Source: Elsinoe ampelina (lineage: Eukaryota). Taken from it: a stretch of 20,000 nt of DNA. The notes below the pieces were generated by a model, which was not told the DNA's origin, did no database searches, and saw nothing but the letters and a program-made list of their open reading frames with translations. The stretch's first letter is position 1. Each line of letters starts with the position of its first letter. Made by a program: the position numbers and the translations under genes. The stretch spans positions 680,341 through 700,340 of the forward strand of contig ML992511.1 in the NCBI GenBank assembly GCA_010093995.1, written 5' to 3'. Below are positions 871 through 19,771 of the stretch, in pieces.

Positions 871-1670
871 TAGCGACATAACTATATTATAAATACAATT
901 CGTAATAACGCCTTAGTTTGCGCCCTCCGCTTATACCGACCTAAACGTAGGTATTAGCGTCCCTAGTATAACCTTTTCTCTCCTCTCTATTCGACCTTAA
1001 TAATAGCTAGCTATCTATTATAGCAGATTCCCGCGCCTAGTATACTACAATTATTAATTGTTATATATACTATAGCAACTCTAATATTTACTCCTACCTC
1101 GCTGTTGCTACTACTTCTAATAGTATTCTCTATACTAGCTATATCGTGTTTATAGAATTAACTACTACTAGTACCTAGTAGTTACGCCGGAGTAAATCTA
1201 TTATAGTATACCTCTCTATCTTGCCTACTACGCCGCTATAGGCTTAAGGGTGCGTAAGGAGACTTCGATATCTCTTTCTCTCTCCCTACTACCGCTACTC
1301 TCTATAGCTTCCTTTATACTAGCTATATATTATTAGTAGGATTAGCTACTATCTCTACCTAGTAGCTACGACTAAGTAAATCTATCGCGGAGTATCTCCC
1401 GATCTTATAGATAGCGCTACTAGGGGTTCTAGCATACGTAAAGAGAGTAGAGGAGCTAGCGTCTACTAGGAATTACCTGCCTTATAGTATAAGAATATTA
1501 AGGGGAGAATTACGGAGGAATAACTAGTATAATAAAGAGAAAGAGACAGAGGTATATCGTAGGCAAAGATACATCTACTACCTCCTACTAGATAGTAGCT
1601 TACTATAGAGAGCGTCGTAGGCGGAGCTATATTAGTAGTATTCTCTTTTATAATTGCTTTTATAGCAGGG
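871..1670. repeat. Direct repeat 1, copy A (~800 bp; partner 8044-8842)
   Basis: Directly alignable, e.g. tattagcgtccctagtataaccttttctctcctctctatt at ~952 and ~8125. Differences are mostly transitions, with one small indel. Confidence 0.95.
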
Positions 1671-2389
1671 TTTTGTTATTAGTAGTGCTTTGTTATAACT
1701 TTCTTACGTTAGTAATATACTTCTTTCTACGTAGATTGTATATCTATTACTTTAATCTCCCTCCTCTAACTAGTAAATAAAATCTCCTTATCTAATATAT
1801 ATAAGTATACTATATATCTTTCTTTATTCCTTGTTATTTGTCTTATCTCCTATCTACTATAAAGACATTAAGGTTGTTACTTTACACAATAATGCTCTTT
1901 GTTAAATAGTTCGCTAGCTGTTTAAAGTATATATAACTTTATATATAGTACTAATATATAAGTGTTTAGTATAGTTAATTACTTCGACACTAATTTTCTG
2001 TAATAATTAGCACTTATAACATTCTCTAATAGCTATGTTTTGTTTGCTTACCTAATTTACACCCTATAATATTTGTTAGTAGTAAACTAACTTATTTACT
2101 TTTAGTTCTAGTATCGACCTAATATTAGTAATTATTACGTGTTACTATTAGCACGTACGAAATATAGACTTAGTTAACTTAGTTTACTTTTAGGTCGAGG
2201 CCTAAACTAGATCTTAGTTATAAGTGTACTACTTACTTTAGTATATTATCTTAAATACAAATTTTATTATATTTAAGAAGTTACTACCTACTTTCTATAT
2301 AGTATTTTAATATTATACTAGGTAGTAGGTATTTATAATTACTACTGTTTACTCTATAGTACTTAACTTACTACGCTTAGTTCCTAGCT

Positions 2390-5300
2390 ATATAATCTTA
2401 ACTCCTCTAACCTTACCTGCCTTATATAACGCCTTTACTAGTAGACATTCTTATACTTATTAAATATATATAATAGCACTATACTGCCGAAGATAAAGAA
2501 GCTAAAGGTCGCTACTAAACCTATAGAAAAGATTCTACTTAATAACCTTATACTAGCTCTTGTTAAGAATACGCTTTATAATAATAATATTAGTAAGAAA
2601 TCTATCTAATTCTTCTTTAATTAGGATAACTAGTAATACTCTACTACATTTACGAGGATAAAGAAAATAATCTTAAAAGTCTTTATAGAATCTAATATTA
2701 AAATTAAGAAACAAGACAGAAGCGAGTTATATAATCCTAAGGTGCTTAAAGCATATCTTAAAATTGAAACTAGACTACTAAATAGCATACCTAACAATTT
2801 CTAGCTCTTTGTTAACCGACTAGATCGGAAAGATCTAGACTAGTTTAAGGAGAACTTACGGACTATAGTTAATATTAATAAGATAAAAGCTATATAGCGA
2901 TTATTCCGAAATACTATATAATTAATAAGGGCAAATCTCCTATTAGTTAAAAGGGAAAGAATAACGTTACTAGGTAAAGAAGGCACCTAGAGTCTATATC
3001 CTTTAGCTACCTCGTCCGTATAGACACTAATGCTCTTCTAAGTAAGAACACCATCCTCGGAGAGATATATAACTTGTGTAAAGACAGGTAATAAGAGATT
3101 AGATTTGTATATATAGCCTCGTTATAGAATGTTTAGCTTTAACTAGGGGCTAGTGTCTAATTATGTCTAGATTAACATTAAATTCGCTACGATCTAGATT
3201 ATAGAGATTATTAAAGCAGATACTATTCCGTATCTAATATTAAGAAAGAACATCCGCGTCTATGACTTAAGAAAGCCTAGTACTAGCAAGGACAAGAATT
3301 GTTGTGTTAATTACTATATCGGTAAGCTTAGGTAGATTCTTAACATTAGAGATAATTACCTCTAACTCTACTAGCTTAACATATATAACTCCGCATAAGT
3401 CTTCGCTATTAAAGACTCTTTCGATCTAGACGCCGCTATTACTAAGTATGTTATAACTCTTATCCCCGGTGCCTATAAGATCTTTCTCTATCTTACTTCT
3501 TCTATAGTATCTATTAAAGATCTTCTCGACTTTATATAAAGTAAGTTTACCCCTTTCCTATTTATCTATGTATACTAACACTTATAGACAACCCTTATTA
3601 ATATTATAGTGGCTAGCAACTACTTCCTTTAGCCGAGGTTACTATAGAAGAAAACTCGGAAGTGTTTCTTACTCCTAAGAAGCTTTGCTTTATAGATATT
3701 AATACTAACAAGAAGCGTAAAGGAGATTAGTAGAAAGAGAATATTATAATATAGAACATTTAATACCCGCAATAGCGACTAAACCGCTAAAGGCAAGAGC
3801 GGTAATACTACTATATTTTATTTGCTATTATGTTATTTATAAAACTGTTTAGTTCTTAACTAATAAAGTTTTATTTAGCTCGTTCTGCCCCTAAGAGCCT
3901 ATAGCCCCTATAAATCCTGCGATTTCCGTTATTATTATTAGAAGTAAACTTACTTAATAGTTCTATAACTATAGCTAGACGGATTTCAACTAACCTAGCA
4001 ACTTAGTTCGGAGTGTAGTTTTACTTTATATAGTTTTAGAAGAATATAGCTCCTTCTCCCCTACTAGAAGAACATAGCCTATTTAGACTATAGTATATAC
4101 TACTAAGGCGCTATTTATATTTCTACTACTTTAATAGCTTAAAGAATATTATATAAGCTACTATATACCTAAGGCCGGCTATCTATCTAGATAAATACGA
4201 TCTCTCGGAGCTCTCTAATACCTCTTCTAAGTTTCACTTTATTACTAGTAACTTCCTATAGCCCGCCTAGTACGCTATAACGTATTATAGTAAAGAGAGC
4301 AAGTCCGAGAAGATAATAACTTACTTCTACTAACACAAGATTAACATCGGTATTAAAAAAGTAATATGTTCTTAATATTATTAACAATAGAAACGAAGTA
4401 ATGCCACTATAGATACAATAGACTAGAGCGTTTAATAATAAGTAAAACAAGTTAGCGAGATAGGATCTTATCCCCTATTATAGTAGAAGCAATAGTATAA
4501 GTTTTAGTTCTATACCGAACTTAGAGTTAACTAAATTAAATAAGAATAGTATAGTGCTATAAAGAAGCGCGTAGGTGTTACTACTAACATAGTTATTAGG
4601 CTTTACTCTTATATACTAGCAAGGTTTATACGTAGTATACTTAGAAGTTAATAAAGAATTCCCGCCGACTATTATTAGTTCTAGCTACTACCTCCTAACA
4701 AATAGCAAAGATACTTTAGGTCAGGTTACGCCTCTTAACTAAGTATAAACTTAAGTTAGTTTAGTTAGCCTAAAACTAGAGACAAACTTATTTTATATTA
4801 GGGCGGATAAGTTCTTTAAGGGAACACTATAACACCTAGCTATCTTATACCTCTCCTTGTTAGGCAATTGCTACTTAGTATTAGCATAGCTCTACCGACT
4901 ATATACGTAGGTTTAGTATTAAGCTTAATATTTAATATAAGGTTAATTACACCGAGAGAAAGGGATTAGATACCTACTACTTAACGAAGGTAGCTTTGAC
5001 ATAGTAGAGCTAGTCTCTATCTATAGGCAGTAAAGACGTACCTATTATAAAGAATAAGAGAGGATAAACTAGACACGATTTAACTTAATATTACTATATA
5101 ATATAATAAGAGGTAGCTCTCCGCCTATACAAAGGTAATATAAGAATAGTTAAAGCCTATCGTAGCTCTCTTTTCGTAAATATAATAGTTACTTCTTGTT
5201 TCTAGTTCGAAATCTTCGTATTAGTCCTTATATAGATAGCTAGACTTCTATTTATTCCTCTTAACATGTATCTTGACCTAATTATAAAACATTTAGTAGC

Positions 5301-6360
5301 TACGCTTGCTTTTATGTCTTATTAGGTTTAAGATATTTCTAACTAGGACTCTAAAGTTTTAATCGAGGATAGATATCTTATTTCTTTAGCGGCACTATAT
5401 ATATAAATCGCTTCGCGCATAGGGGAGTATACCTTAACTACGATTATAGAGACGCTATATAGGAGAGAGTAGTATAGAATAATATCTATATTTAATAAGT
5501 AAAAGGAACCTAGAGGTAATTATACTAGATGTTATTACAAGCTTGCTTTATTTACTCCGCCGCCTCGCTAGTATAGAAAGAGTAATAACATTAACTAATA
5601 TTATAGCAGGGGCTATAAATACTTCTTAGACTTTATACCTCGAGCTAAAGTAGTAGATAAGCATATAGCTAGCGCTACGCTAGATTAGAAATATAGGGCC
5701 TTTATGTTATTATTCCTAAGATTATAGAATAGAAAGCCTATAGTTAGAAAACTAAGAGGTAGTAAGGGATTATTCGTGTATATAACTCTATAGCGCTAGC
5801 AGTAGCTATAGTAGTTAGTTCGACTTAGTTAGTCTAGTTCGGTTGTTACTAATAAGAGAGCTACATCTACAATAACTTAAGAGAATCCCGAATAGCTAAG
5901 CTATCGGAATTAGTAAAGGTACTAAAGTTATCGTTGTTAATTATAGAGAGAAGTCTATAGTAAGCTACGTAGGTATTATTAGAGTAGCTATATCGAAGTA
6001 AACTTACTTCGAGAAGGCTACGCTAGTTAGTTTATAACTAGGAATAGCGTATAGTTCTATAACAAGTAGAGTACTAGTGCTTCTACCTTAATAGTGTAAC
6101 TTCGCTTAACACAAAGTTAGTGTGTAGATCTAATTATTATAGTAGACTTCCGATAGTGCCTTAGAGAATATAATATTCGCTAGCGTAGATATAATAACAG
6201 CGTTTATGCTTAAGCTAACTATACTATCCTATCGGCTAAAGAAGTAAGTTAACTATAGCTACGATACACTAACGATAATATAGAAGGTTATATAAGACAA
6301 TATAGCAAAGCAAACGAACTAAAAGCGTAGTTGTTTAAACTAATAGAGGAGTAATAGTAA
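2390..6360 (+). pseudogene. Diverged, frameshifted paralog of the unknown ORF + SNF2 helicase, copy A
   Basis: Colinear anchors to copy B at ~7.2-7.35 kb offset: 2399/9601, 2610/9860, 2838/10084, 3430/10670, intron 5814/13158, CVDLIIIVD (~6121) vs CFDTIILLD, ataacagcgtttatgcttaagctaact (6194) vs atagaggcgtttataataaagccgaca (13535), and ataatatagaaggtt (6275/13616). Motif I is not clearly readable and small indels shift the frame. Confidence 0.6.
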
Positions 6361-6589
6361 ATTATTAGTTTATCCTTGTTAAGATTGGTTAAGGGAACAC
6401 TTACAATTTTCACCTAAAAAGCGCTAGTTTTAGTTTAGCGAACTAATTAACTACCCCTAATAGATTAACTATAGGTATAAACGACCTAATGTTATACAGC
6501 CGAGGCGTCTTTATATACCGCTATTACTATTTTTTTGTAGAGGCTATTTATAACTAACTTATTACAATACTAGTAACAAGTCGAGACAC

Positions 6590-7343
6590 GAGATAGTAAG
6601 AGCTATAAATTGTTTACTAGCTGAAATTATTATGCCTAGGCGGCACTCTCTATTTTATAATTGCTATAAAAGCCTCTACTAAGAACAATAGCGCGACAAT
6701 AGCTAATTAAGTATAGTATTTAACATTGTTCTTAAGCGAGAGATAGCTAATAAACTCTATCGCCTAGATATATTAGAGCAAACTCTGTCTCGATGTGTCT
6801 AGTACTATAGCGTAGATATAATTTTAGCTTTAGTCCGCCGACGCTATACAATAGCTTAGTCCTATTAGCTCTACTACGAATTACGGTAAATAAGAACCGA
6901 ACTAAGTAACGAGGTAGAAACGATAGCCTATAGCTAGCGTTAGGTGTCCTTCCCCCTTTGCCTACTATATAGTATAGTATAGTAGATAATTCTCTTAGTC
7001 TCTTTACTAACCTCGACCCTCGACCTCTAGCATATAGAACAGATAGTAATAGTAATAGTAGGCTCGATAGTGACATATATAAGGAAGAGAAGAGCATAGA
7101 CAAGGTTATAATAGAAGGCACGCACGAGAAAGAGTAAGTAATTACAGTAAGTATAACTAGTAGCACGTCTATAGGGCGGAGTACTAGGAGGTTGTTCTTA
7201 TCTAGTAGAGCTATATCTAATTATACTACGTTCGAGATAGTAACTAGTATACTAGCTAGTAGCGAGGAGTTAGTAATAGACATAGTTTATCCTTAGTTTA
7301 CATTAACTAATCTTGTCTAGATCTCCCTAAGTCTATAATATAT
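6590..7343 (+). pseudogene. 5' fragment (exon 1 + intron) of Plavaka transposase, copy A, truncated
   Basis: About 6830-7343 aligns with ~14180-14695 and is near-identical from ~6944. Similarity stops abruptly 23 nt after the intron acceptor. Confidence 0.7.
6885..7343. repeat. Direct repeat 2, copy A (~460 bp; partner ~14237-14695)
   Basis: Shared from gtgtccttccccctttgcctactatat through gtctagatctccctaagtctataatatat. Offset is 7352 at the 3' end. Confidence 0.95.
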
Positions 7344-7721
7344 CCTTCGCCCCGAGCGATTAATAAGATATAGCTTAGCTAGGGACCCTTAGCTCGGCGC
7401 TCTAACGTTTAATAAAAGGCAAGCTACTAACTTAGATAAATAATTTTAATTCGAGTTAGGTCGTCGTAGTAGAAGTGCCTTCTAGTAGAATACACTTGCC
7501 GTAGACTACTAGCCTCTATATAATGTTCTAACAAATCTACTTCTACCTACGTAAGGGTACTAAAGATATGTCTAAGTTACATACGCGAAGGCTATAGTAG
7601 TCTAACTAATAGTAAAATAGTATTTACTAGTAGGAAGCTTACTCGGCTTAAATTTAGTAGTATAAATCGTTGCTTTACTCTATCTCTAGCATGTTATATA
7701 TAGCAGTAGTAGAGGGCGGCC

Positions 7722-7916
7722 GGTAGAGGACAGCTAGTAGTTTATTACGTCGAACTAACAATTTCTTAGTTCTCTCTCTCGAAGTTTAAAGATGATCTAA
7801 AATTTCGACCTAACTATAGCTAGTAGGGGATAGCTAGTAGTTTATTACGTCGAACTAACAATTTCTTAGTCCTCTCTCTCGAAGTTTAAGGATGACCTAA
7901 AATTTCGACCTAACTA
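7722..7916. repeat. Tandem repeat, 2 copies of a 100-bp unit
   Basis: agctagtagtttattacgtcgaactaacaatttcttagt(t/c)ctctctctcgaagtttaa(a/g)gatga(t/c)ctaaaatttcgacctaacta at 7732 and 7832. Confidence 0.95.
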
Positions 7917-8009
7917 GATTAAGTACTCCTCGGAACTCAATTATATAATGCTATCTAATTATGTTCTTCTCTAAAGTTAAGTATTGTATGTTTAGAGACT
8001 TATAATCTT

Positions 8010-9120
8010 TATAACATTATAAACGCGTTACAAACCCTGTTTATAGCGATATAACTATATCGTAGACACGATTTACTATAACGCCTTAGTTCGCGCTCTC
8101 TACTTATACTAACCTAAATATAGATATTAGCGTCCCTAGTATAACCTTTTCTCTCCTCTCTATTTAACCTTAATAATAGCTAGCTATCTATTATAGCGGA
8201 TCCCCTGCCTAGTATACTATAATTATCTATTACTATATATACGATAGCGACTCTAATATTTACTCCTATATCGCTATCGCTACTACTTCTAATAGTATCC
8301 TCTATACTAGCTATATCGTATTTGTAGAATTAACTACCGCTAGTACCTAGTAGTTACGCCGGAGTAAATCTATTATAGTATACCTCTCTATCTTGCCTAC
8401 TACGCCGCTATAGGCTTAAGGGTGTATAAGGAGACTTCGATACCTCTTTCTCTCTCTCCGCTACTACTACCCTCTATAGCTTTCTTTACACTAGCTACGT
8501 ATTATTAGTAGGACTAGCTACTATCTCTACCTAGTAGCTACGACTAAGCGAATCTATTACGGAGCATCTCCTAATCTTATAGATAGCGCTACTAGGGGTT
8601 CTAGCGTATGTAAAGAGAGTAGAGAAGCTAGCGTCTACCAGGAATTACCTACCTTATAGTATAAGGATATTAAGGGGAGGATTATAGAGGAATAACTAGT
8701 ATAACAAAGAGAAAGAGATAGAGGAATATCGCGGGCAAAGATACGTCTACTACCTTCTACTAGATAGTAGCTTACTATAGAGAGCATTGTAGGCGGAGCT
8801 ATACTAGTAGTATCCTCTCTTACTATTACCTTCCTAGTAGGGCTAGGCGAGGAATAAAGCGCATTTATAATTATGTAGAATGTACTATTAACTGCCTATT
8901 CCGCGGAATGTATAGCCTTTACTCTACCCTACTACTCGATTCTATATATAGCAATTATAAAGTCTAAATAATTAGATAGTAGTATATTACTTTCTTTATT
9001 CCTTTACTAGTATCTATAAGCTATACTATACGCTATATATACTATGCCCTTTATTCCGCTATAGGCTACTAACTACCTTCTATTTATATTCTATTGCTAT
9101 TGTCCTTTATATACGAATAC
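8010..9120 (-). pseudogene. RIP-degraded minus-strand ORF, Ser/Pro/Arg-rich low-complexity protein, divergent from the SNF2 locus (copy B; copy A ~870-1870)
   Basis: One minus frame reads continuously with only TAA/TAG stops (REDTTSIAPPTMLS...RREKEVSKSPYTPLS...DIASIEDTIRSSSDSD). The 5' part is still detectably related between copies (ctttctttattcctt at ~1818 and ~8990). Confidence 0.4.
8044..8842. repeat. Direct repeat 1, copy B
   Basis: Aligns to 871-1670 at an offset of 7172-7173. Confidence 0.95.
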
Positions 9121-9582
9121 TAGTTTCGCTATTAAAATATTATTTAATTATTTTACATTAACTACTACTATATTCTCTCTATTTATTAGACTATTATCCC
9201 TTAAGATCTACCCTAAACACGACAATAGTATCCTTAGTGTATACGGCATATAAAATAAAAGGTAACTAAGTATATAGACTATAGTTACTCTTAGTTTAGT
9301 ATCTAAACTAAGTAATCTACTATTACATGTATACTGTATCTAGTATACTACTACGTGCTTAGTTTAGGGCCTAACCTAAGTCGACTAAATTTAGGTTACT
9401 TCTCTCTTTAATTGCTTTAGTTTACCTTTATTTATACTCTCTTATATATAAACAAATAACTTATATAGCTCTCTAGTATTTCTTTAACCTCTTTAACCTC
9501 TCTTTTAAGCGCTCTTTACTTAAATATCTCCTCTTTAGTTAAGTCTTAGTTAGGCATATATTATAAAGTACATAGACTTGCT

Positions 9583-10950
9583 ATGTTAATAAATCCTCTC
9601 TTTAATTCTTCTAAACTTATAAATACGTAACACCTTTATAGAATCTCTTCTTTAATATCTACTATACCTACTTAACCTATTTACTAGATATTATTCTAAG
9701 CTTTATTTATAGCATATACTAAGCTTATAGACGCACGTAATATGTCTAAGAATTAGCCTAATAGCGCTAGTATAGCTACTAATAACATTCCACTCTACGA
9801 AAGACCTCCTATAGAAATTTAAGTATAGCTCAATAAAAACCTTAAGATTAAGAGATTCTTCCTTAAATTCTTTAACTAGGACAATAACTAGTACGCCGCC
9901 GCACGCGTAAGAGCGTAGAAAGAATATAAGAATACCTATATAGTTCTAGGACTTAAATATAAGGAACCTTAGGATAGTAATGTTAATATAACTACAATTA
10001 TAGATAATATTAAAACTTCTCTACGATACTCTTAGGATAACTATACGAAGATCTTCTTTTAAAGACTATACTATTAAGACTAAGACTAGTTTAAGAGGAA
10101 CGTTAGAAACTATAATAATATATCTAGTTATAATATTATTAAAGATTTTGTCCTTACTATTAAGGCGTAAGAGCTTAGGAATAAGAAGAATTAGACTAAA
10201 GTAGACAAGAAGGCTTATCCTAAGAAGCATATTAGAAAGTGCCTCTTCGCTACCTAGTCTAATAGCGGACTCTCTAAAAGATTAGAGACTTCTATACTTA
10301 GTAGCAGACTTATAGGCATAGATATTAATTACTGCACTAGTTAGCCTATACATTAGTAGTAAATGCTAGAGGACATGTCTTATCTAGTCTAGAGCATTAT
10401 CGATAAAACTATTATTAACTTTATAATTGTTAAGTAATTAGACATTAGCCTAGGCATAATTATAAAGAGAGAATGTTCGTGTCGTCTATAAGCGTTTAGT
10501 CTAAGAATTTTAAGGTTATATCCGGAGGATTATAATCTAAACGTATATAGCCTTAATAATATTAGGCTATTCCTAAAGGAGAAGAAGTTAGTTAGTAATA
10601 ACATTATCCTTATATAGATAGATTATATAGAGCTATATAACATCCTACCTATCTTAGACAACTACGACCTACGTGCTGCTATAATTAACTATATTAACTC
10701 TCTAGTTAAAGGTAGTAATGTAATTTTTGTCTATCTTACGCCTAGTATAGATCTAGTTAAGAAGCTCCCTAAAGAAGTACTTTATAAGTTTAATACTTAG
10801 TTCGACTTAGGTATATACTAATATACTTAGTTAACTCTCTTTAGTATTATAATAGTTAGAAGCTATCGACTCTAGTCTAGGAGGAAGAGGAAGAGAAACC
10901 TCTAGCCCTTCTATCTCTAGCTAAGCGCCTACTACTGTGTAAATCTACCT
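9583..10950 (+). pseudogene. RIP-degraded ORF of unknown function (separate gene or long N-terminal region of the SNF2 protein), copy B
   Basis: Frame +1 from atg at 9583 is protein-like, with stops of the TAA/TAG RIP type. It shows codon-level similarity to copy A (10080 gactagtttaagaggaac vs 2838 gactagtttaaggagaac; 10666-10750 vs 3424-3507). Confidence 0.55.
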
Positions 10951-10979
10951 CTAAGAAGTAACCTAGCTCTCTATTACCT

Positions 10980-13723
10980 AACGAGGATAATACTACTATT
11001 AACTATCGTCCTACTCGGGTAATAGAAGACAAATACTATAAGTAATACTAAGATAGTAATTAGTATCCCTTTATAATTATACCTAGCAAGGAGCAAGTAA
11101 GGTACTATATTCTATTAGTCTCTAAGACGCTATCTATACCTATTCTAGCACTTATAACTTACACATTTAATAAGACTCTTAGTAGCTTAGACTTTGTTAA
11201 ACTTTATACTATAAACGACAATAACGACAAGTAAACTAGTAATAATCTAGCTAACTAAAGCTTTATCTCTATAGGCACTAGAATCGATTACTAGTCCGAA
11301 GAGTTCTAGGAGAGAGTCTATAACTTTATAGGCTTTAAGAAAGACATCTACTTACCGAACGCTAGTGTATAGTATTTTAGTTAGAATAAGAAGTATCTAG
11401 TCGAGGTAGTATAGATATACTTAGCGCTTATTACACTTAAGAAATACCTCGAAGGCTATCTAGTATTTATGTTTATATATAAGATAGAATTTAGAAAGAC
11501 TCCGATAGAACTCTTCTTTCTCTTACTAATTTAGAACTTAAATAAAAAAGTTATCTAGGATACTAACTATACTACTATACCTAAGAACAAGTAGAGTAAG
11601 TACTAGAAGGTAAAGACACTAGTTAACGAGCTATAGCTAGATGTCGCTTCTATAGATACTATTAGCTATAATCTAATTATTAGCGAATTAAATGTAATAA
11701 AATAGTAAGCGTAGGAGACACGGAAGTTTATACCTAATATAAAGGTCGTCCTATACTAGAGAAGGATATTCTAAACTATATAAGAATATAAGTATAGCAA
11801 CGTATATAACATAGACACTTTAATTCGCAAAGAGGATCTACCTATAGACTACCGCTAATAGGAGTCTTAGCTAATAGATAAGTCTAGTAAGCCTATCGAC
11901 ACTATTATAGTCTTATAACTAGTTAATATATATAAGCGACACTCTCGGACCTTATAGATAAATAATTAGTTCTTCTTCACTACTTATAACACTATAATCT
12001 ACTACTTCCTTAGTAAGAATAACGTAAATGCCAAGGATTAGAACTTTGTTCCTAAGGGACAAGAGAGAAAGCCAAGGTCTACGCCTATAAACTAGGCCGC
12101 TATTATCTTTAATAAGTTCTATTAGGTTACTAGCTAGAAGACGTAGACCTAGTATTGTCTAGGAATACTACCGGGGAGGCCTTTTATACTAGGCATAAGT
12201 AAGACGCTATTTGTTAAGTACTTAAACATAGTAGCGTTCTTAACAGCGGCTATATATAAGGACTTTAGATTAGAAAAGCTTAATGTAAATAGAAGTAGAA
12301 TAGGAGAATTTAACGAGAACTATATCTATAAATCTAAGTAAGAGCTAACTAAGGCTAAGAATAATAAACGTTAAGCAATACTAAAGATAATACTAGATAA
12401 GACTTAATAAGCTATCGCTAACAAGCTTAACTTCTAAATAGTATTAGACTATACCTTCGTAATTAATAAATAGTATAAGGCAAACAATAACTCTAGTAAG
12501 TTTAATAAAAAGAGAAGTATATAGTTCATAGAAGAGATTATAGCAACAGTTAGCAAATAGGGTACTATTCTTACGAACATTCTTATTAAGATAAATGTAG
12601 ACTATATCTAAAAACCTTTCGATACTACTTCTAGTCTACTAGCTATTAGAGTCCTACTATATTCTACCTTCGACCTAGAGATCACTATTAAGGATAAGTA
12701 TCTTTATAGTCTTATAAATACATAGAAGAAGATCAAACGGGATATAGATAAGAGTATATAAGAGGCAATTAATAGGCAAAAGGACAAATCCGATAAGCCC
12801 GAAGTAACATTAGAGACAATTCTTAATAAGAAGACTAAGAAGCAAATACTAAGCCTAGTTACGCCGCTACTGCTTTTCTCTATATTCCCTACTCTTATAG
12901 ATATATTCTAGGACAATCCCGTAGTTGTAGAAGAGTTTAGTAACTTTACTATTAAGTTTGCCTACAAAATTATATATAACCCCTCGGAGATAGTACTATA
13001 GTAGCATATAGACAAGATCTACGCTAGTCCTTAGATAAAGGTCCTTTATAGTGTTATTTCCGAGATTATTAAGTAGAACATCTCCTATTCGAAGGAGCTA
13101 AAGAGGCAAGTAATCGTCTATACGTTTATACCGTTAGTGCTAGTAGTTGCTACAATAGTTAGTTTAGTCTATTTAGTCTATTTAGGTCATTACTAACAAG
13201 GGTATAGTATCTAAAATGGCTCGAGAAGCACCTAGACGGCAAAGTAATTAAGATTAATAAGAATACTAATATAGTTGTTGTCTACTATAGAATAATATCT
13301 ATACCTACCTATATAGACATCGTCGACGTAGCTATGTCTAATAATATATTTATTAAACCTAATAGGCTAGAAGGCTTAAGGATCTTAATTGCCTAGGGTA
13401 GAGCTATTAAGACTAGTCTTAATCTAAACTGCTTCGACACTATAATCTTGCTTAATATAGCATTAGTATTACAATCCGTCCTTTAGTGTCTAGTTTAGGT
13501 CTATAGGAATATTAAGTCTTAGAAAGCTAACTATATAGAGGCGTTTATAATAAAGCCGACAGCTCCGTTCTATAGGCCTCTAGAATAGCTTAATAGTAGA
13601 TAGAGTAGGCTATTAATAATATAGAAGGTTATCTACGAGGAAATAGAGAAGTAGAGAGTAGAGATCTAGAAACTTTAATAAGCTATAGCAAAGAAGAACG
13701 CGATTATTGTAGATAATAATTAA
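10980..13723 (+). pseudogene. RIP-inactivated SNF2-family (SF2) helicase/ATPase, copy B
   Basis: Frame +3: motif I tat aag ata gaa ttt aga aag act (11478-11501) -> HEM(G)FGKT; motif II att atc ttt aat aag ttc tat tag (12102-12125) -> IIFDEFHQ; motif III LGIS(G/E)TPF (12189-12212); motif IV-like RQVIVYTF (~13104). After a putative intron (13158-13207), frame +2 gives RILIAQGRAIETGLNLNCFDTIILLD (13379-13456) and motif VI-like QCLVxVHR (~13484-13507). Order and spacing fit SNF2_N plus Helicase_C. The 5' boundary is uncertain. Confidence 0.82.
13158..13207 (+). other. Putative intron (50 nt) in SNF2 relic
   Basis: gttagt...actaac...tatag. Splicing links frame +3 (motif IV) to frame +2 (motifs V/VI). 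A similar gttagt...actaat segment occurs at the equivalent position in copy A (~5814-5865). Confidence 0.6.
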
Positions 13724-14236
13724 GATTACTAGATAATAGTCTAACTATATTACCTAAAAATGTAATTCTTTAGTTTAGCGGACTAATTTAGTTCCCCGTG
13801 TATGTTAAACTATCTTTTAGGTTACCTAACATAATATAGCATCTAAACGTTTCTTACTTTCTACTATTACTAAAATTTAGCTAGCTAACTCTAACTATAA
13901 ATTTAGATCTTAAGCGACAAACATAGATATACTAAGGCGAATTAGTAAATGCTTAGCCTACGGGAAGATTATATAATCTAGTAGAGGCCTTGTCTAATAT
14001 CTACTATATTACTAGAGGAGAGAGCTACTAATAAGCAACATAGCGTAAGTCTTACTAGAGTAATATAGTAATAGACATCTACGTAGAAATAATGCTAGTA
14101 ATAATCCTTGCTTATTTAATAAGGGAGAGCGCTTACTATCTAATAAAGGCCGACAAGGTAGTATTACTAGTAATGTACAATATAGTCCGCTAATGCCGAA
14201 TAACTCGCTAGTCTACTTTACTCCGCTGCGAATAAT

Positions 14237-14695
14237 AGTAACTAAGAATCGAACTAAACACTAGAGTAGAAACGAAAGTCTATAGCCGGTAGAGAGTGTC
14301 CTTCCCCCTTTGCCTACTATATAGCATAGCATAGCGGATAATCCTCTTAGTCTCTTTACTAACCTCGACCCTCGACTTCTAGCACGTAGAACAGATAGTA
14401 ATAGTAATAGTAGACTTAATAGCGACATACACGAGGAAGAGAAGGGCATAGACAAGGTTATAATAGGAGGTATATACGAGAAAGAGTAAGTAATTACAGT
14501 AAGCACAACTAGTAGCACGTCTATAGAGCGGAGTGCTAGGAGGTTGTCCTTATCTAGTAGAGCTATATTCGATTGTACTACGTTCGAGATAGCTACTAGT
14601 ATACTAGCTAGTAGCGAAGAGTTAGTTATAGATATAGTTTATCCTTAGTTTACATTAACTAATCTTGTCTAGATCTCCCTAAGTCTATAATATAT
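14237..14695. repeat. Direct repeat 2, copy B
   Basis: Aligns to 6885-7343. The two ORF-track minus-strand ORFs at these positions are near-identical as a result. Confidence 0.95.
14621..14672 (+). other. Spliceosomal intron (52 nt) in the transposase relic
   Basis: gttagt donor, actaat branch-like site and ctag acceptor. Removing it joins frame +3 (exon 1) exactly to frame +1 (transposase core). The same intron is present in copy A at 7269-7320. Confidence 0.7.
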
Positions 14696-17600
14696 ACACT
14701 AACACTAACGATAAACTAAATTATAATTAGTTAGGCAAGACTTAACTAAAGGAAGCCTTTATTAGCGGCATAGACGTAGGTCTTGCCTAGTAGCTTATAA
14801 AGGAGAAACTTAGTAGAGCTGCGATTATATAATTACTTAAAGACCTACGTATACAACCTCTAGTAGAGAGCCTTAGTTAGCAAACTACGAATAAACTAAT
14901 AGAGAAGATAGAGAATTTAGATACGGGCAGGGGTATTAACAGCTAGTAGACCTTAAGCTTTATACTAAACACTAATCATAGGCCTAAAAGACACACGTTC
15001 TAGTATCTAGATATTCTTATAGCGATATGCTTCTTGCTTAGCTATTGTAGTTTTATAGTAGACATAGACTATAGCTTATATAGAGTCTTTATAGAAGCTG
15101 TCGAGAGTAAGCCGCTACAACAAGTATATACCGAAATAGCAAGCAGCAACTAGTAGTAGAACACATAAAAGCGACTTAGGATACTAGGGGCTACTATTAT
15201 CCCATTAATCGTCGTAAGTAATTAGACCTAGGTAATAAACTATTAAGGAGATCTTATAGCACACGCTATCTATCTATTATTAGGCAATCTAAAGGTAGAA
15301 GTACGTAATAGCAACTACTAGCTAGGGTAGTTACTAATCGGCTTACTTCCTATTATTAAAGATAGTAGTAATATCGTTAAGGAGAAGACCTACTACGCTT
15401 GTATAAAGAAAATCTTTAACGCCGTTATTAATTACTACTTAAGAGGGGGCAAAATAATCTCTTATATAGATAGAAAGAGGTAGAGGTACTTCTCTATACT
15501 TACTGCTATGCCTACGGATTACGCCGAATAGGTTACTATAACTAGTGTAAAGTTACTATATTATTATATAAGTTACCTAATTAGTAAGGACGAAAGGGAG
15601 GACCTAGTAGTTACTATACTATTTCGAACTTACTACTCTACGTAGCAATAATAGCACTTATAGAGAGAAGCATACGAGAGTTAGTAGCGGGGCAAGAAGA
15701 TAGATATAAGCTCTTAGGTTTATATAGTTAGTTACTTCGCGTAGGATCTTCTATATACTAATATTTACTACGCGATAGTGCTAGATATTCTATACTAACT
15801 TCTTAAAGGCGTTTTAATATATATCTTATGCTAGACTTGAAAATTGCTCTAGGATTTAATACCTATATAGAGATTACTACGGTATATAAAGGCTAGAGAG
15901 ACTATATAGCGAATAGGCTACTAGTGCTCGGCAAAGAAGATTATACTTAATATTATCGATAAGCGTTTTAATAGTATACTAGTATTTCCTAGTATCTGAC
16001 ACTTCTTGCACTACTTAGCTGTTAAGTAATAGACAGGTTAAGAGTAGAAGAGTATTATACGCTAGATGCTTCTAGTATTTATACTACTACTTAAGGAGGT
16101 TAAGGCGCCTTAAGCTATTAAGTTTATACGCGCACTAGTCGACTTTATATTACTAGTGAACTATAAGACCTATAATAACGACATACTCTAGTATATTAAC
16201 CTTGCGCTCTTTAGGATAAACAAGTATAAAGAAACCTTCTAGGCCTATTATAGCGATAGGAAAGAAAAGGGCAACTTTAACTTTCCGAAATAGCACTTAA
16301 TAATACATTTTTTAAAGGCTATCTATAATTTTAGAGTAGTTACTAGCCTCGATTCTAATTATTTAGAGCATAATTATATATACTTTATTAAGGACGCCTT
16401 TAAACTTATAAATAAGAAGGCTAGATAGGAAGACTAGGTTACTACTTATAACACTAAACTAGTAAACATATTAGTAGTATTTAATAACCCCTCGAAGTTA
16501 GTTAGGCTATTAGCTACTAAACTAATTAAGATCTAGAGTACGCTAGTTAGCGTAAGCAATATAATAAACGTCACTTCTTAGTTCAGCTAGCCTAGCGCTA
16601 AGAAAAGAGCTATATAGCGTATAGTAAGAGAACTAGAGGCGCTTATTAACATACTACCTAGGCTATTACTATAGCAAGTAATAGCGGTGTTTATCCACAA
16701 GGCTCATTAAGGTATAGCTAAGATAGGCTCTAACTTAAGAACTAAATACCCTAATTAGTTCGACGCTAAACTAGATCCTAATAGACTTAAACTAGATTCT
16801 TCCTAGGTAAGCGACCTCTACGTTAAGTTCTACTATTCTTTAAAGTGTAGGAAACTATCTAACTATAATCCTAATAATCCTAATACGGACGAATAAGACT
16901 TTATCTAGTGTATAACTAAATAGTAAAGGATATATAGCAATAAGAGGCAAGACTAGCTCTAGGTATAAGAATAGACAACGAACAATAAAGGCACTAACGG
17001 AGTATTACCTAATAGCCTATAAGGTAAGTTACTAGCTTATATTATGTTTATAATAACTATAGAGGATAGCTTCTAGTCTAGTAGATCGGGCTAGCGTTAA
17101 CGCCTATACTATATAGGAGCGCTAGTAGATCTATATTAGCCTACTTAGCCGGATAGAGCAGCTAATCGAGAGCATAGTATAACACTAATTAAGCCTTAGA
17201 CAAATCGACGTACGTAAGCTAGATAGAACGCTCTTACTAGTAGGCGTATCTACTCTACCTTATAAATCTACTATAGTATCTACGTCGTGCTAGTAGATAA
17301 CATAAAGCTATATAGCCGGATATACATTAATAACATAGCTGACTTTAACACATATAATATACTATAGAATAAGTTATAGAAGTCTAAATAGCTTTACCTA
17401 GCTAAGGCTTTAAAACGAGAGAGGTTAAGATCCTAAGGCGTAGTTAGTAAGCGTAGTAGGCATTAACGAAGCTAGAGTACTCCTTTCGTAGCTAGAACAA
17501 TTATCTCTTACATCGACGGCCTAACGCTTAGGTATACTTAGGTTAACTACTAGACTATGTTAGGTAGGCGAGTTATAATAACTTCCGTAGGTATTACTCT

Positions 17601-18001
17601 AACTAGTTAGTTTATACCTATATATTATTAGGTTAGTCCCTAAACTATATAGGGTTTACGGCCTAAGGTACCTTATATAGTTTTTACGCTAAAGAGTTAG
17701 TCTATTCCTTTACTAATTATAATAGCTTAGGAAATTATAGCGAGGCGTTATAGAAGTTAGTCTTTAAGATACTTAAGACATACCCTAAGTATTTAGCAAC
17801 AGTAGTAAAAGGCTTAGGTTAGTAAGTTATCTTTAGGTTAGTTTCACTAACGGAGTTAGCAGTCTAAGAGGAAAGTTTATTCTCTATAATAAGTTTACTA
17901 ATAAGACTCCGATATAGACGATAGTACTTTACTCTATTTGCTATTATATCGTAGGGATCTACTCGATGCTACTAGAGCAGTTACTAAGGACTTATTTCTT
18001 T

Positions 18002-18100
18002 CTATCTAACGGACAAGATCTATAATAACACTAGCTTAGAAGACCCGCTAGGGAATATTCTTGTTAATCTTTATATATATACTATACGCAGGAAACGAGT
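18002..18100 (+). pseudogene. Relic coding segment, possibly the C-terminal part of a fungal BTB/POZ-domain protein (copy 1)
   Basis: Reads YLTDKIY(D)NTSLEDPLGNILV(D)LY and shares cggacaagatctataataacactagcttaga with 19589-19619. Confidence 0.35.
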
Positions 18101-19580
18101 TAAGGAAGAAGCTGCCCTTTAGTACGGTAAGTAGTCTCTTTCTTGTCCTCTAAAGTCTCCTCCGTATCTATGTAGGTTATAAGTATTTCCTCGTAAGATT
18201 ATTAGTATATAATATATATATAACAAATCCTATCTATAAGATTATATACTAGATTATCCTATATGCGCTATTACTACAACTACTACTTAGTAGTAGTAAT
18301 AGTAGAGCAGCGAAATATAGTAGGAAAAAGTATTATTATATCTACCTCCGAGAGGGGAATACTCTCTTTCTCTCCTATATCTTCCTCCTTGCTCTCCGCT
18401 ATAGTAAGGTATACCGTAACTAAAGCTACTACTACTACTCCCTCCGTAACTACTGTTGCTTATATATAGCTACGACTATAGGTTATTGCCGGAAGCTTAG
18501 TACGTGTTAGGGTAATCTTATCTTTAATATATAGTAATAAAGTGCTACAATCTTAACCCGGACACTGCCTCTATTACCTCTCTAACAACTGCTATAACTA
18601 GCGCCGAGAGCTAGTAAGGCAAGAAGTATACTACCTCTACCTTCGCTAGTGTCTATAGCTATGCTAGTATTAAGCTTAGCAAGGTAGAGGAGAAGGGTAA
18701 GAAGCGGAAGAAGTCTCTTATTATTACTAATTACCTCCTTACTAATAACCTCGTAGATAGGTAGTTAAGGTAGATCTTAAACTTCCTAGAAAGAGTATTT
18801 ACTTCTCTACTATAACTACTTTCGAGCTGTTGTTTAGACTACTATATCCTTAGTACTATCTCCGGGGCTACTTAGATACTATACCGATGTTCGTTAGACC
18901 TTACTTTTCTAGGTAGTCTTTCGTAGCTTTAGAATTATCCTTCTAGTAGGTATACTATTCCGTGTTAGTAGACGAGGAATTAGCTTAGCCTAAACTAAAT
19001 GTCTATTACATTTCCCGTACCTATCTATATTAGTGTTAATCTTCTTAGAATAGGCTATAGCCTCGCTACTATAGCCACTATTAACGTAGTATATCTAGCT
19101 TCTATTATTATTCTCTTCCTACGTTACTAACGACTTCTAAGTACTAGAACAGGTCTATAGGTATTTATACTTAATGTTATAACTATACTTAGCTATAATA
19201 ATTAAGTCCTTCTCGGGAAAAGCTTCCTTATATCTATAAGCCTAAGTTATAAATACTCCTCTATAAGCTTGTTTTATATTGTCAACAATATAGGCCGCTA
19301 GATAGTAGAACTTGTAGGCTATAGGGCAATAGAGGCGCTTTTCGTTAGTGTTAACCTTTGTCGCTAGCTATATAGTTACGCGAAAGTACTTGTCTTTAGA
19401 GACATCTAACACCTTAATAGACAACTAAGTAGAGACGATAAAATAGAGTTAGAATAAGTATATATTAGTTTAGGGTTTTATATTACAAGCTAGAGAATAA
19501 GGCGTATAATGTCTACTTTCCTATTATAGCGAAAGTGCTTCTATACTAAGCTTCGATAATATAGAGTATACACTTCCCCT

Positions 19581-19680
19581 CTATCTAGCGGACAAGATCT
19601 ATAATAACACTAGCTTAGAGAGCTCTCTCCGGAAGATGCTTGTTAATTTCTATATCTATTCTAGTCGCGGCAAGTAGAGC
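19581..19680 (+). pseudogene. Relic coding segment, possibly the C-terminal part of a fungal BTB/POZ-domain protein (copy 2)
   Basis: Reads YLADKIY(D)NTSxESSLRKMLV(D)FY, which resembles the IYENT...SPLRRLLVD.Y signature I recall from ascomycete BTB proteins. Confidence 0.4.
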
Positions 19681-19700
19681 GTTTATCTAATCTAAGGCAC

Positions 19701-19771
19701 GTACGGTGCGTTTAACTAAAATTAGGTAGGTACGGTGCGTTTAACTAAATTTAGGTAGGTGCAGTGCGTTT
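19701..19771. repeat. Tandem repeat, ~2.4 copies of a 29-bp unit
   Basis: gtacggtgcgtttaactaaa(a/t)ttaggtag at 19701 and 19730, plus a partial gtgcagtgcgttt at 19759. Confidence 0.9.

Follow-up and report, generated by a model that had tools for sequence, protein, structure and literature searches.

The locus discussed here, positions 8044-17466 of a 20,000-nucleotide stretch of Elsinoe ampelina contig ML992511.1 (GCA_010093995.1; the whole stretch is called the window), raises the question of whether a DNA transposon of the Plavaka family can carry an SNF2-like motor gene of its own next to its transposase. A first-pass annotation had proposed such an element, with further cargo genes and with mutational decay throughout. 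The reading favored here, with a probability of roughly 0.6, is that 8044-17466 is a copy of a multicopy ascomycete Plavaka (CMC/EnSpm-like DDE) DNA transposon killed by repeat-induced point mutation (RIP), from a lineage with an SNF2-like superfamily-2 ATPase gene upstream of the transposase and on the same strand. In this dead copy the SNF2-like gene most likely occupies ~9.9-13.8 kb and the transposase 14.9-17.47 kb. Relics of both genes lie here on a common strand, their pairing recurs in other samples, and the sequence is present in many copies; that the two genes form one mobile unit is likely.

The Plavaka part of the finding is solid. In Pfam scans of the whole window (six frames, stops read as X), Plavaka is the sole family detected: PF18759 matches 14887-15816 (+) with 90.1 bits against a curated cut-off of 26.3 (E 2.1e-25), over profile positions 4-317 of 325. 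The DDE transposase relic as a whole (14887-17469, +), delimited by this match, by intact homologues and by a mutation-aware profile, keeps to one frame without any frameshift, with 71 stops in 853 codons. A word-seeded protein search with residues 255-760 of its translation retrieves four intact PF18759 proteins (E 2e-78 to 2e-64), one of them a hypothetical protein of the dothideomycete Polychaeton citri; in return, tblastn with these four proteins covers 15013-17430 in a single frame (E 5e-69 to 5e-97; residues 38-810 of 858 in one homologue, similar ranges in the others) and, at E<=0.01, finds no match elsewhere in the window. With the mutation-aware Plavaka profile, 14971-17469 reaches 683.1 bits (nodes 24-865 of 867), and no other part of the window exceeds 24.5 bits. 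A domain match above the curated cut-off and full-length homology to intact Plavaka-domain proteins thus bear out the plus-strand transposase of the first-pass annotation. For the separate 'unknown ORF' and 'divergent gene' that the annotation had placed alongside, no evidence was found: the transposase fills 14.9-17.46 kb, and since its matches run to 17430-17469, the end coordinate 17466 corresponds to its C-terminus. The hallmark of the family is a DDE catalytic triad with C(2)C and H(3-4)H motifs, as given in the Plavaka text of Kojima 2025 (PMC12730594); at the stop density of this relic, the residues now present are uninformative on the triad. When the word-seeded search is run with residues 255-580 only, it gives zero matches, against four at E<=2e-64 for residues 255-760, so that a blank from such a search is weak evidence where the query is hypermutated.

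The transposase relic lies in uniformly AT-rich sequence (GC 0.27-0.37 throughout the window). RIP-type indices are extreme in 20 of 20 one-kb bins, with high TpA/ApT (1.63-2.18) and low (CpA+TpG)/(ApC+GpT) (0.20-0.44) in every one of them, and only two open reading frames (ORFs) of at least 80 amino acids are found in the whole window; every gene in the units at 871-17466 is inactive. To this decay corresponds a large number of copies. Unitigs of two public runs (X1 and X2, from one sample) were placed on the window at >=80% identity: 13,481 of 231,436 in X1 and 10,139 of 122,051 in X2. They cover all 30 bins, with a summed depth of 8,275-20,039 in X1, where single listed unitigs have ~150-350; summed depth is not copy number, and unitigs give neither copy number nor element borders. 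At the places where unitigs and window differ (X1), there are 1,468 transitions and 23 transversions. Since several thousand distinct unitigs fall on 20 kb, every part of the window must belong to repeats with dozens of variants, differing by C>T and G>A; the repeated segments L and R within the window, described further below, differ in the same way. Both the RIP over all genes and the multicopy status proposed earlier are therefore upheld.

Hypermutation alters residues besides making stops, and a mutation-aware test was therefore built for the gene upstream. It is a custom codon-level local alignment in which each T may formerly have been C and each A formerly G, ancestral residues being weighted by posterior probabilities, and in which a cheap long-insert state absorbs introns and frameshifts. 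The SNF2 profile used with it comprises 27 bacterial sequences and 479 nodes; it was drawn from E. coli rapA, from 30 loci that a PF00176 search found in 151 genomes, and from another 20 regions. When held-out rapA is mutated in silico (C>T/G>A at 36-60% of C and G sites), the mutation-aware mode still recovers it with 115-164 bits, versus 40-130 for naive alignment.

The best SNF2 match in the window on either strand is 11057-12428 (+), with 33.3 bits over nodes 4-231, and thus covers the N-terminal lobe (N-lobe). By this custom method its motifs follow each other in the expected order: the Q-motif at 11057-11134, motif I (Walker A) at 11469-11549, motif Ia at 11664-11825, motif II (DExH) at 12081-12176, an SGTP-type motif III at 12180-12278, and a post-III block at 12306-12428. 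From 11469 on, most of the relic keeps to a single frame, where 27 of 320 codons are stops. In 80 dinucleotide shuffles of 10500-14200 the mean score is 18.0 (standard deviation 2.0, maximum 24.3) and none reaches 33.3 bits (p ~3e-5 from a Gumbel fit); 16 other real 3.7-kb tiles give 15.8-18.8 bits on both strands, the opposite strand 18.8, and reversed sequences 23.4 and 19.9. The match is retained at reversion settings from 0.1/0.1 to 0.5/0.3, with 26.7-33.3 bits. Further downstream, at 13040-13760 (+) and in a frame different from that of the N-lobe, lies a relic resembling the C-terminal lobe (C-lobe) of a helicase in its motif IV-VI region, with 11 stops in 204 codons; it is conserved between two copies of the unit, A and B, in the window (E 1e-16). 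Taken together in order, N-lobe and C-lobe score 51.9 bits, which none of 60 shuffles reaches. Motifs II and III placed by eye near 11.7-11.85 kb, in the C-lobe frame, proved wrong: the systematic alignment puts them in another frame, at 12081-12278. Upstream of the N-lobe, at 9868-10140 and 10627-10926 (+), copy B has two coding-like blocks that are conserved in copy A (tblastn E 3e-5 and 5.5e-10); without a Pfam family, they may represent the N-terminal region of the same helicase-like gene. Its motifs end at ~13.5-13.8 kb and the transposase begins at ~14.9-15.0 kb, which leaves a gap of ~1.1-1.2 kb in place of the ~200 bp first stated.

The strongest support for the pairing of the two genes comes from outside the window. 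An alignment of the four Plavaka proteins retrieved 46 metagenome loci encoding Plavaka relatives, among which the transposase is closest to those of L137 (417 bits) and L138 (390 bits); between these two, identity is 50% for the transposase and 40% for the helicase C-lobe. In L137, an ORF at 3-632, which runs off the contig start, lies upstream of and on the same strand as the transposase (2207-5008), and matches Helicase_C with E 1.6e-6. In L138, two ORFs at 358-1299 and 1753-3132 lie upstream of and on the same strand as the transposase (3758-7159); they show a Q-motif and a degenerate Walker A, followed by a DExH box and motif III, and the stretch at 2791-3252 is 40% identical to the L137 ORF. 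Compared by hhalign with the bacterial SNF2 alignment, the three pieces match it one after another as expected (P 0.009, 0.0012 and 2.4e-5). L147, a more distant Plavaka, has an ORF at 2-340, again upstream and on the same strand, which matches Helicase_C (E 1.5e-5), the SNF2 profile described above (E 3.9e-9) and, by hhalign, the bacterial SNF2 alignment (P 1.8e-7). Copy B of the window, L137, L138 and L147 thus agree in having a Plavaka transposase preceded, on its own strand, by a helicase-like gene, with Helicase_C recognized in L137 and L147; the first-pass annotation had named recurrence beyond this locus as the test of its proposal, and this recurrence is found. The same two-gene pairing in these three relatives points to a transposon lineage carrying its own helicase.

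The relatives also connect back to the window. A profile of the second L138 ORF scores 28.6 bits on copy B, against a null of 18.5±1.9 (0 of 25 reach it), and a profile of the C-terminal ORF of L137 scores 23.4 bits at 13382-13642, the place expected for a C-lobe, against 16.9±1.9 (0 of 25). On copy A neither profile is significant, and profiles of the first L138 ORF and of the L137 ORF at 1525-2259 remain at null level in the window. As read from the alignments by eye, the window and L138 have in common a spacing of 22 residues from DExH to motif III and a Trp at position +10. Structure-based searches give further indications: neighbors of the second L138 ORF in the ESM Atlas are SNF2-rel_dom/Helicase_C clusters with feature scores of 0.91-0.95, which serve as leads only, as does its best structural neighbor, an HLTF-like SNF2 cluster with a template-modeling (TM) score of 0.53. 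The model of the L137 C-lobe is of low confidence (predicted local distance difference test, pLDDT, 57.7; predicted TM score 0.50); its best Foldseek rows in the PDB, with E 2e-4 to 8e-3 and TM 0.4-0.5, are mostly SNF2 remodelers (ISWI, Chd1, SNF2h, INO80, SMARCAD1, Fun30, Mot1), with a few DEAD-box and Dicer chains as well.

Against this reading of the upstream gene weigh a number of results, beginning with those on its identity. In the window, SNF2 support comes only from the custom mutation-aware alignment. SNF2-rel_dom (PF00176) has no Pfam match there in six frames, even at E<=10 on short queries, nor has Helicase_C (PF00271) in the six-frame scans; plain hmmsearch --max with the SNF2 profiles made here gives nothing positive in the window; phmmer against the PDB with three window queries retrieves no SNF2 protein; a profile of the A/B alignment has 0 matches at E<=0.001 among 1.84 billion representative proteins; and the word-seeded protein search for the SNF2 relic gives none. 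In naive mode one reversed-sequence control reaches 30.1 bits, and at the extreme reversion setting of 0.5/0.5 the N-lobe match is lost (17.0 bits). The C-lobe alone scores 18.6 bits at 13400-13760 (nodes 388-473), a score that 16 of 60 shuffles reach and that is thus not significant. Between the helicase region of the window and the helicase ORFs of the relatives there is no plain tblastn similarity in either direction at E<=0.01. Among the relatives themselves, SNF2-rel_dom is absent from L137 and L138 in Pfam even at E<=5, and the upstream ORFs of L138 (358-1299 and 1753-3132) have no Pfam match of any kind at that threshold. Motif I of L138 reads G-F-G-K-G instead of GxGKT, and an in-frame stop falls inside its C-lobe; in L138, too, the accessory gene may be inactive or in decay, or else the stop may be intronic. 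Of the earlier claim of a co-oriented SNF2 relic upstream, strand and position stand through the mutation-aware N-lobe, whereas support from stock hidden Markov models (HMMs) is missing, and the HMM check suggested with that claim divides accordingly: PF18759 is found in the window, PF00176 and PF00271 are not, and the N-lobe of the intact relative L138 fails PF00176 as well.

These results leave some room, albeit little, for the explanation that the upstream relic is not of SNF2 type: it could descend from another superfamily-2 helicase (ResIII- or DEAD-like, or another bearer of Helicase_C), or the N-lobe match could have been produced spuriously by a flexible aligner. The only Pfam family seen in the relatives is the generic Helicase_C, with nothing in the window; the hhalign probabilities of the L138 N-lobe pieces are low (4% and 19%); the L137 C-lobe model is poor and has DEAD-box and Dicer helicases among its matches; the Atlas scores are leads; and the SNF2 profile is bacterial, built without comparison to other families of the superfamily. 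What makes this explanation improbable is the succession of SNF2-typical features, namely a Q-motif, a Ia block with a Gln-Trp pair, DExH and the SGTP-type motif III, with an N-lobe score that none of the 80 shuffles and none of the 16 real tiles reaches. The C-lobe of L147 has an SNF2-type motif V-VI region, in addition to its hhalign P; the best Foldseek rows for the L137 model are overwhelmingly SNF2 remodelers, and the best structural neighbor in the Atlas is the HLTF-like cluster.

Whether the SNF2-like gene and the transposase belong to one element depends on the architecture of the window, which contains two units in tandem, copy A (~871-7343) and copy B (~8044-14695), with the same order of parts and ~7.2-7.35 kb apart. 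Each begins with a segment L, at 871-1670 in copy A and 8044-8842 in copy B (88.75% identity over 800 nucleotides by self-blastn), and ends with a segment R, at 6874-7343 and 14226-14695 (88.4% over 474 nucleotides), the latter immediately upstream of the transposase relic; the start of the studied stretch, 8044, is the start of segment L in copy B. Between the copies, L and R have a purine/pyrimidine identity of 0.98-1.0 in 120-nucleotide windows and are set apart by 98 transitions and 10 transversions; with transitions making up almost all of the differences, they must have been near-identical when hypermutation began. Between L and R lie 5 kb that are barely alignable as DNA (purine/pyrimidine identity mostly at chance level, 0.72-0.88 in patches), and the two copies are alike there at the protein level only, on the plus strand and in the same order, with tblastn E-values of 3e-5, 5.5e-10 and 1e-16, the best block having 32% identity over 213 residues. 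In copy A these blocks form a helicase-like relic at 2613-6310 (+), composed of 2613-2894, 3375-3683 and 5696-6310. By these comparisons, copies A and B are therefore old paralogues with young, once near-identical segments on either side; common cis-acting end regions of two subfamilies and gene conversion are both possible sources of this pattern. Candidates for SNF2 motifs in copy A score at best 15.9 bits (5324-5353), 16.3 (6654-6805) and 12.9 (4976-5065), which is null level, and only the last of them aligns with copy B.

The comparison of L and R also characterizes the mutations. Of the C>T changes between 1061-1655 and 6900-7343 and their counterparts in copy B, 14 are followed by A, 10 by C, 5 by T and 4 by G, and adjacent CpG<->TpA double changes between the copies number 23. 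RIP of the Neurospora type prefers CpA; the double changes and the mixed following bases thus mean that the hypermutation context here is broader than CpA and that CpG was struck on both strands. CpG<->TpA doubles occur among the unitig variants too, at 3017/3018, 15738/15739 and 17659/17660.

This architecture is less favorable to a two-gene element than the relatives are. The outer borders are sharp, at the R ends (7343 and 14695) and, fairly so, at the L starts (871 and 8044), with only the inner borders fading (L near 1656-1670), and they exclude the transposase. Copy A has no Plavaka relic, whether by tblastn at E<=0.01 or by the mutation-aware profile (<=24.5 bits), so that the gene order reported for copy B is not repeated in copy A and the linkage once seen as conserved between two deeply diverged copies in the window fails; copy A is another helicase-bearing unit, of ancient divergence and lacking a transposase, which could make it a non-autonomous or truncated relative. 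Nor have ends been found for the whole: long-range inverted repeats of at least 36 nucleotides in a purine/pyrimidine alphabet are absent from the window, no target-site duplication or inverted ends are seen at the L and R borders, and a CACTA-like word at 14697 has a partner only at chance level (~8 expected, 1 seen). Of the shared termini, inverted repeats or target-site duplications that the first-pass annotation had looked to, none enclosing both genes was found in the window. Published Plavaka ends are TGT..ACA or CATCA..TGATG with 2-3 bp target-site duplications (Kojima 2025, PMC12730594, Plavaka text), and these ends were not found here; short ends would be blurred by C>T/G>A changes, and ends may lie outside the window. 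Finally, runs X1 and X2, coming from one sample that is possibly the window's own source, are not independent of it.

Such borders would be expected if two unrelated repeats happened to be adjacent: helicase units bounded by L and R would form a family of their own, spread by another kind of mobility or by segmental duplication, and a Plavaka element would have landed beside copy B among other mutated repeats. Copy A consists of just L, helicase and R; no ends enclosing both genes are found; close to where L starts, at 747 and 821, a few unitigs part from the window (these loose ends, like those at 4106, 9577, 11936 and others, are backed by 1-4 unitigs each); and as all parts of the window are multicopy, the flanks included, equal depth is no proof of a single unit. 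This explanation is unlikely, since L137, L138 and L147, which come from other samples and whose transposases are at most 50% identical, repeat the order seen here, helicase first and transposase after it on one strand; chance nesting would not be expected to yield this arrangement again.

A further explanation does without mobility altogether and sees in the window a part of an amplified block of at least 20 kb (a centromeric, subtelomeric or tandem segmental repeat) that contains old relics and was spread by recombination. It draws on the multicopy cover, uniform over the whole 20 kb, on the tandem arrangement of copies A and B, on the missing transposon ends, and on a unitig, present in both runs, in which 17035, toward the 3' end of the transposase, is followed after 14 other letters by 8765, shortly before segment L ends; by this junction, some genomic copy must be arranged otherwise (in tandem, permuted or rearranged). 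That the block is of this kind is nevertheless highly improbable: relatives with an intact transposase are typical transposon contigs of single-gene scale with the same helicase neighbor, and divergence by transitions only is consistent with RIP acting on a burst of near-identical copies, as it usually does on active transposons in these fungi.

A RIP-killed Plavaka element of a helicase-carrying lineage therefore remains the preferred reading of 8044-17466. How general the association is can be judged from the 46 loci, of which 33 have at least 1 kb of upstream sequence: a same-strand SNF2-like gene is found in three loci and a superfamily-1 helicase in two that are one element, and in most relatives whose upstream sequence is available no helicase is seen, which is a further point on the negative side. 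Run on all ORFs of at least 60 amino acids in the relatives, the SNF2 profile matches only in L147 and L159. It is about an even chance that, in an undescribed ascomycete Plavaka clade, the transposase is regularly accompanied by an accessory gene for a fast-evolving SNF2-like ATPase.

In an element of this kind, a single pair of transposon ends would enclose both genes, and the transposase would mobilize them jointly by cut-and-paste. The putative ATPase might act as an accessory DNA translocase or remodeler that opens chromatin at the donor or target site, or that opposes silencing; encoded by the transposon itself, it could help it to reach or leave nucleosomal DNA, to repair the excision gap, or to resist heterochromatin. 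The mechanism preferred among these, that the ATPase lets the transposase reach nucleosomal DNA at donor or target sites or counters heterochromatin, has a low probability, and the aid to integration or the countering of silencing proposed in the first-pass annotation is likewise purely an inference. In this genome, dozens of copies of the element would have arisen, all of them later killed by RIP-type mutation.

DNA- or chromatin-modifying genes are familiar cargo of Plavaka and KDZ elements, and Iyer et al. 2014 reportedly described TET/JBP-carrying Plavaka transposons of Agaricomycetes. PlavakaB transposons of this group carry TET/JBP according to the Plavaka text of Kojima 2025 (PMC12730594). 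As far as described there, they resemble the element proposed here in being large and in linking a Plavaka DDE gene to an accessory gene acting on DNA or chromatin, thought in their case to help the element escape silencing; they differ in that the accessory gene is a dioxygenase and not an SNF2-like ATPase, and in their Agaricomycotina hosts, the host lineage here being Ascomycota, with the nearest named relative from Polychaeton citri. The words 'helicase' and 'SNF2' are absent from the Plavaka text and one supplement of that paper. Giant Plavaka elements of 17-19 kb with accessory genes PAG1-3 are described for the red alga Bostrychia, in the parts of 10.1101/2025.02.11.637652 dealing with them; these, too, are multi-gene elements with chromatin-related accessory genes, adjacent tandem repeats, massive amplification and mostly degenerate copies, but their accessory genes encode N6-adenine methylase/SET and ParB-like/2OG-oxygenase proteins and no SNF2, the single 'SNF2' mention in those parts of the preprint concerning host gene families. 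Known Plavaka cargo, by these portions of the two sources, is thus TET/JBP in fungi (PMC12730594) and methylase/oxygenase genes in red algae (10.1101/2025.02.11.637652). Cryptococcus KDZ1-3, in the sections of PMC11588098 that treat them, are likewise fungal DNA transposons (9-11 kb) with extra ORFs besides the transposase; unlike here, the transposase is of the KDZ superfamily, the extra ORFs have no predicted domains, and 'SNF2' occurs in these sections only within the name of the SWIM zinc finger.

With the SNF2 remodelers of hosts (ISWI, Chd1, INO80, HLTF/Rad5), the gene in question shares the motif order of the RecA-like lobes; it is far more divergent, below the Pfam threshold for SNF2-rel_dom, as well as multicopy, linked to a transposase, devoid of detected accessory domains, and, in L138, degenerate in motif I. 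Helitron and the 'H' forms of Academ and Kolobok are DNA transposons that encode a superfamily-1 or -2 helicase beside the transposase; their transposase families differ from the one here, and to our knowledge their helicases are not of SNF2 type. AcademH, KolobokH and Helitron are named as sources of Helicase_C in the relevant passage of PMC10799480. No report of an SNF2-like accessory gene in Plavaka was found in the literature searched, which did not include Iyer et al. 2014 or Repbase. As Plavaka elements carrying accessory genes were known before, the SNF2-like gene is, by that literature, the new addition. If the reading is true, it adds to transposon accessory genes a new class, that of motor proteins like those by which hosts move nucleosomes and silence transposons, and if intact copies exist in Dothideomycetes, it becomes testable whether a DNA transposon needs its own remodeler to transpose or to escape silencing. 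On the technical side, genes hypermutated by C>T/G>A are missed by stock HMM searches and can be recovered by a mutation-aware codon profile.

The flanks of the Plavaka relatives contain several other genes. Their ORFs of at least 140 amino acids number 111, and the Pfam scan comprised 11 chosen ORFs and 62 of these 111; left out were duplicates in L175 of ORFs in L173, overlapping antisense ORFs, and ORFs already scanned. A superfamily-1 helicase of 961 amino acids (AAA_11 E 9e-27, AAA_12 E 5.5e-41) lies upstream of the Plavaka transposase on the same strand in L143 (1471-4353, +) and L149 (5525-8407, +), preceded by ~1.25 kb of tandem repeats with units of ~260 bp; the two loci are 99.8% identical over 8.7 kb. 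With helicases of another superfamily in the same position, acquisition of a helicase may have happened repeatedly among Plavaka lineages. An SNF2-like C-lobe ORF is also found in the AT-rich long contigs of L159 (4596-4973, -) and L155 (4582-4971, -), there ~5 kb upstream of the Plavaka match and on the opposite strand (E 2.7e-10 with the SNF2 profile, Helicase_C E 3.9e-4; 31-32% identical to the L147 ORF), the L155 copy with 3 stops. ORFs of DUF6532 (E ~1e-11) occur upstream on the opposite strand in L140 (936-1460, -), L141 (427-936, -) and L144 (497-1018, -), and one of DUF3716 (E 3e-13) in L139 (2384-2851, -); they may be further lineage-specific accessory genes. Genes of retroelements and of Mutator-like elements (MULEs) are likewise among the flanking ORFs.

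Within the window, segment R contains minus-strand ORFs at matching places in both copies, 6747-7166 (139 amino acids, the longest of the window) and 14261-14518 (85 amino acids). At ~10 stops per 100 codons, an open frame of 139 codons is unexpected by chance; the longer ORF has no Pfam match, and its best Atlas score is 0.77, as a lead only. Repeat finders give nothing diagnostic on segment L and on the spacer of 700 bp between copies A and B; the spacer has a 100-bp tandem duplication at 7723-7916 (Tandem Repeats Finder: period 100, 1.9 copies, 94% matches). Downstream of the transposase, a dispersed pair of 84-bp repeats at 18001-18084 and 19580-19663 is 83% identical, and a 29-bp tandem repeat (3.2 copies) at 19679-19771 lies near the window end, where the summed unitig depth doubles, to 20,039 in the last bin.

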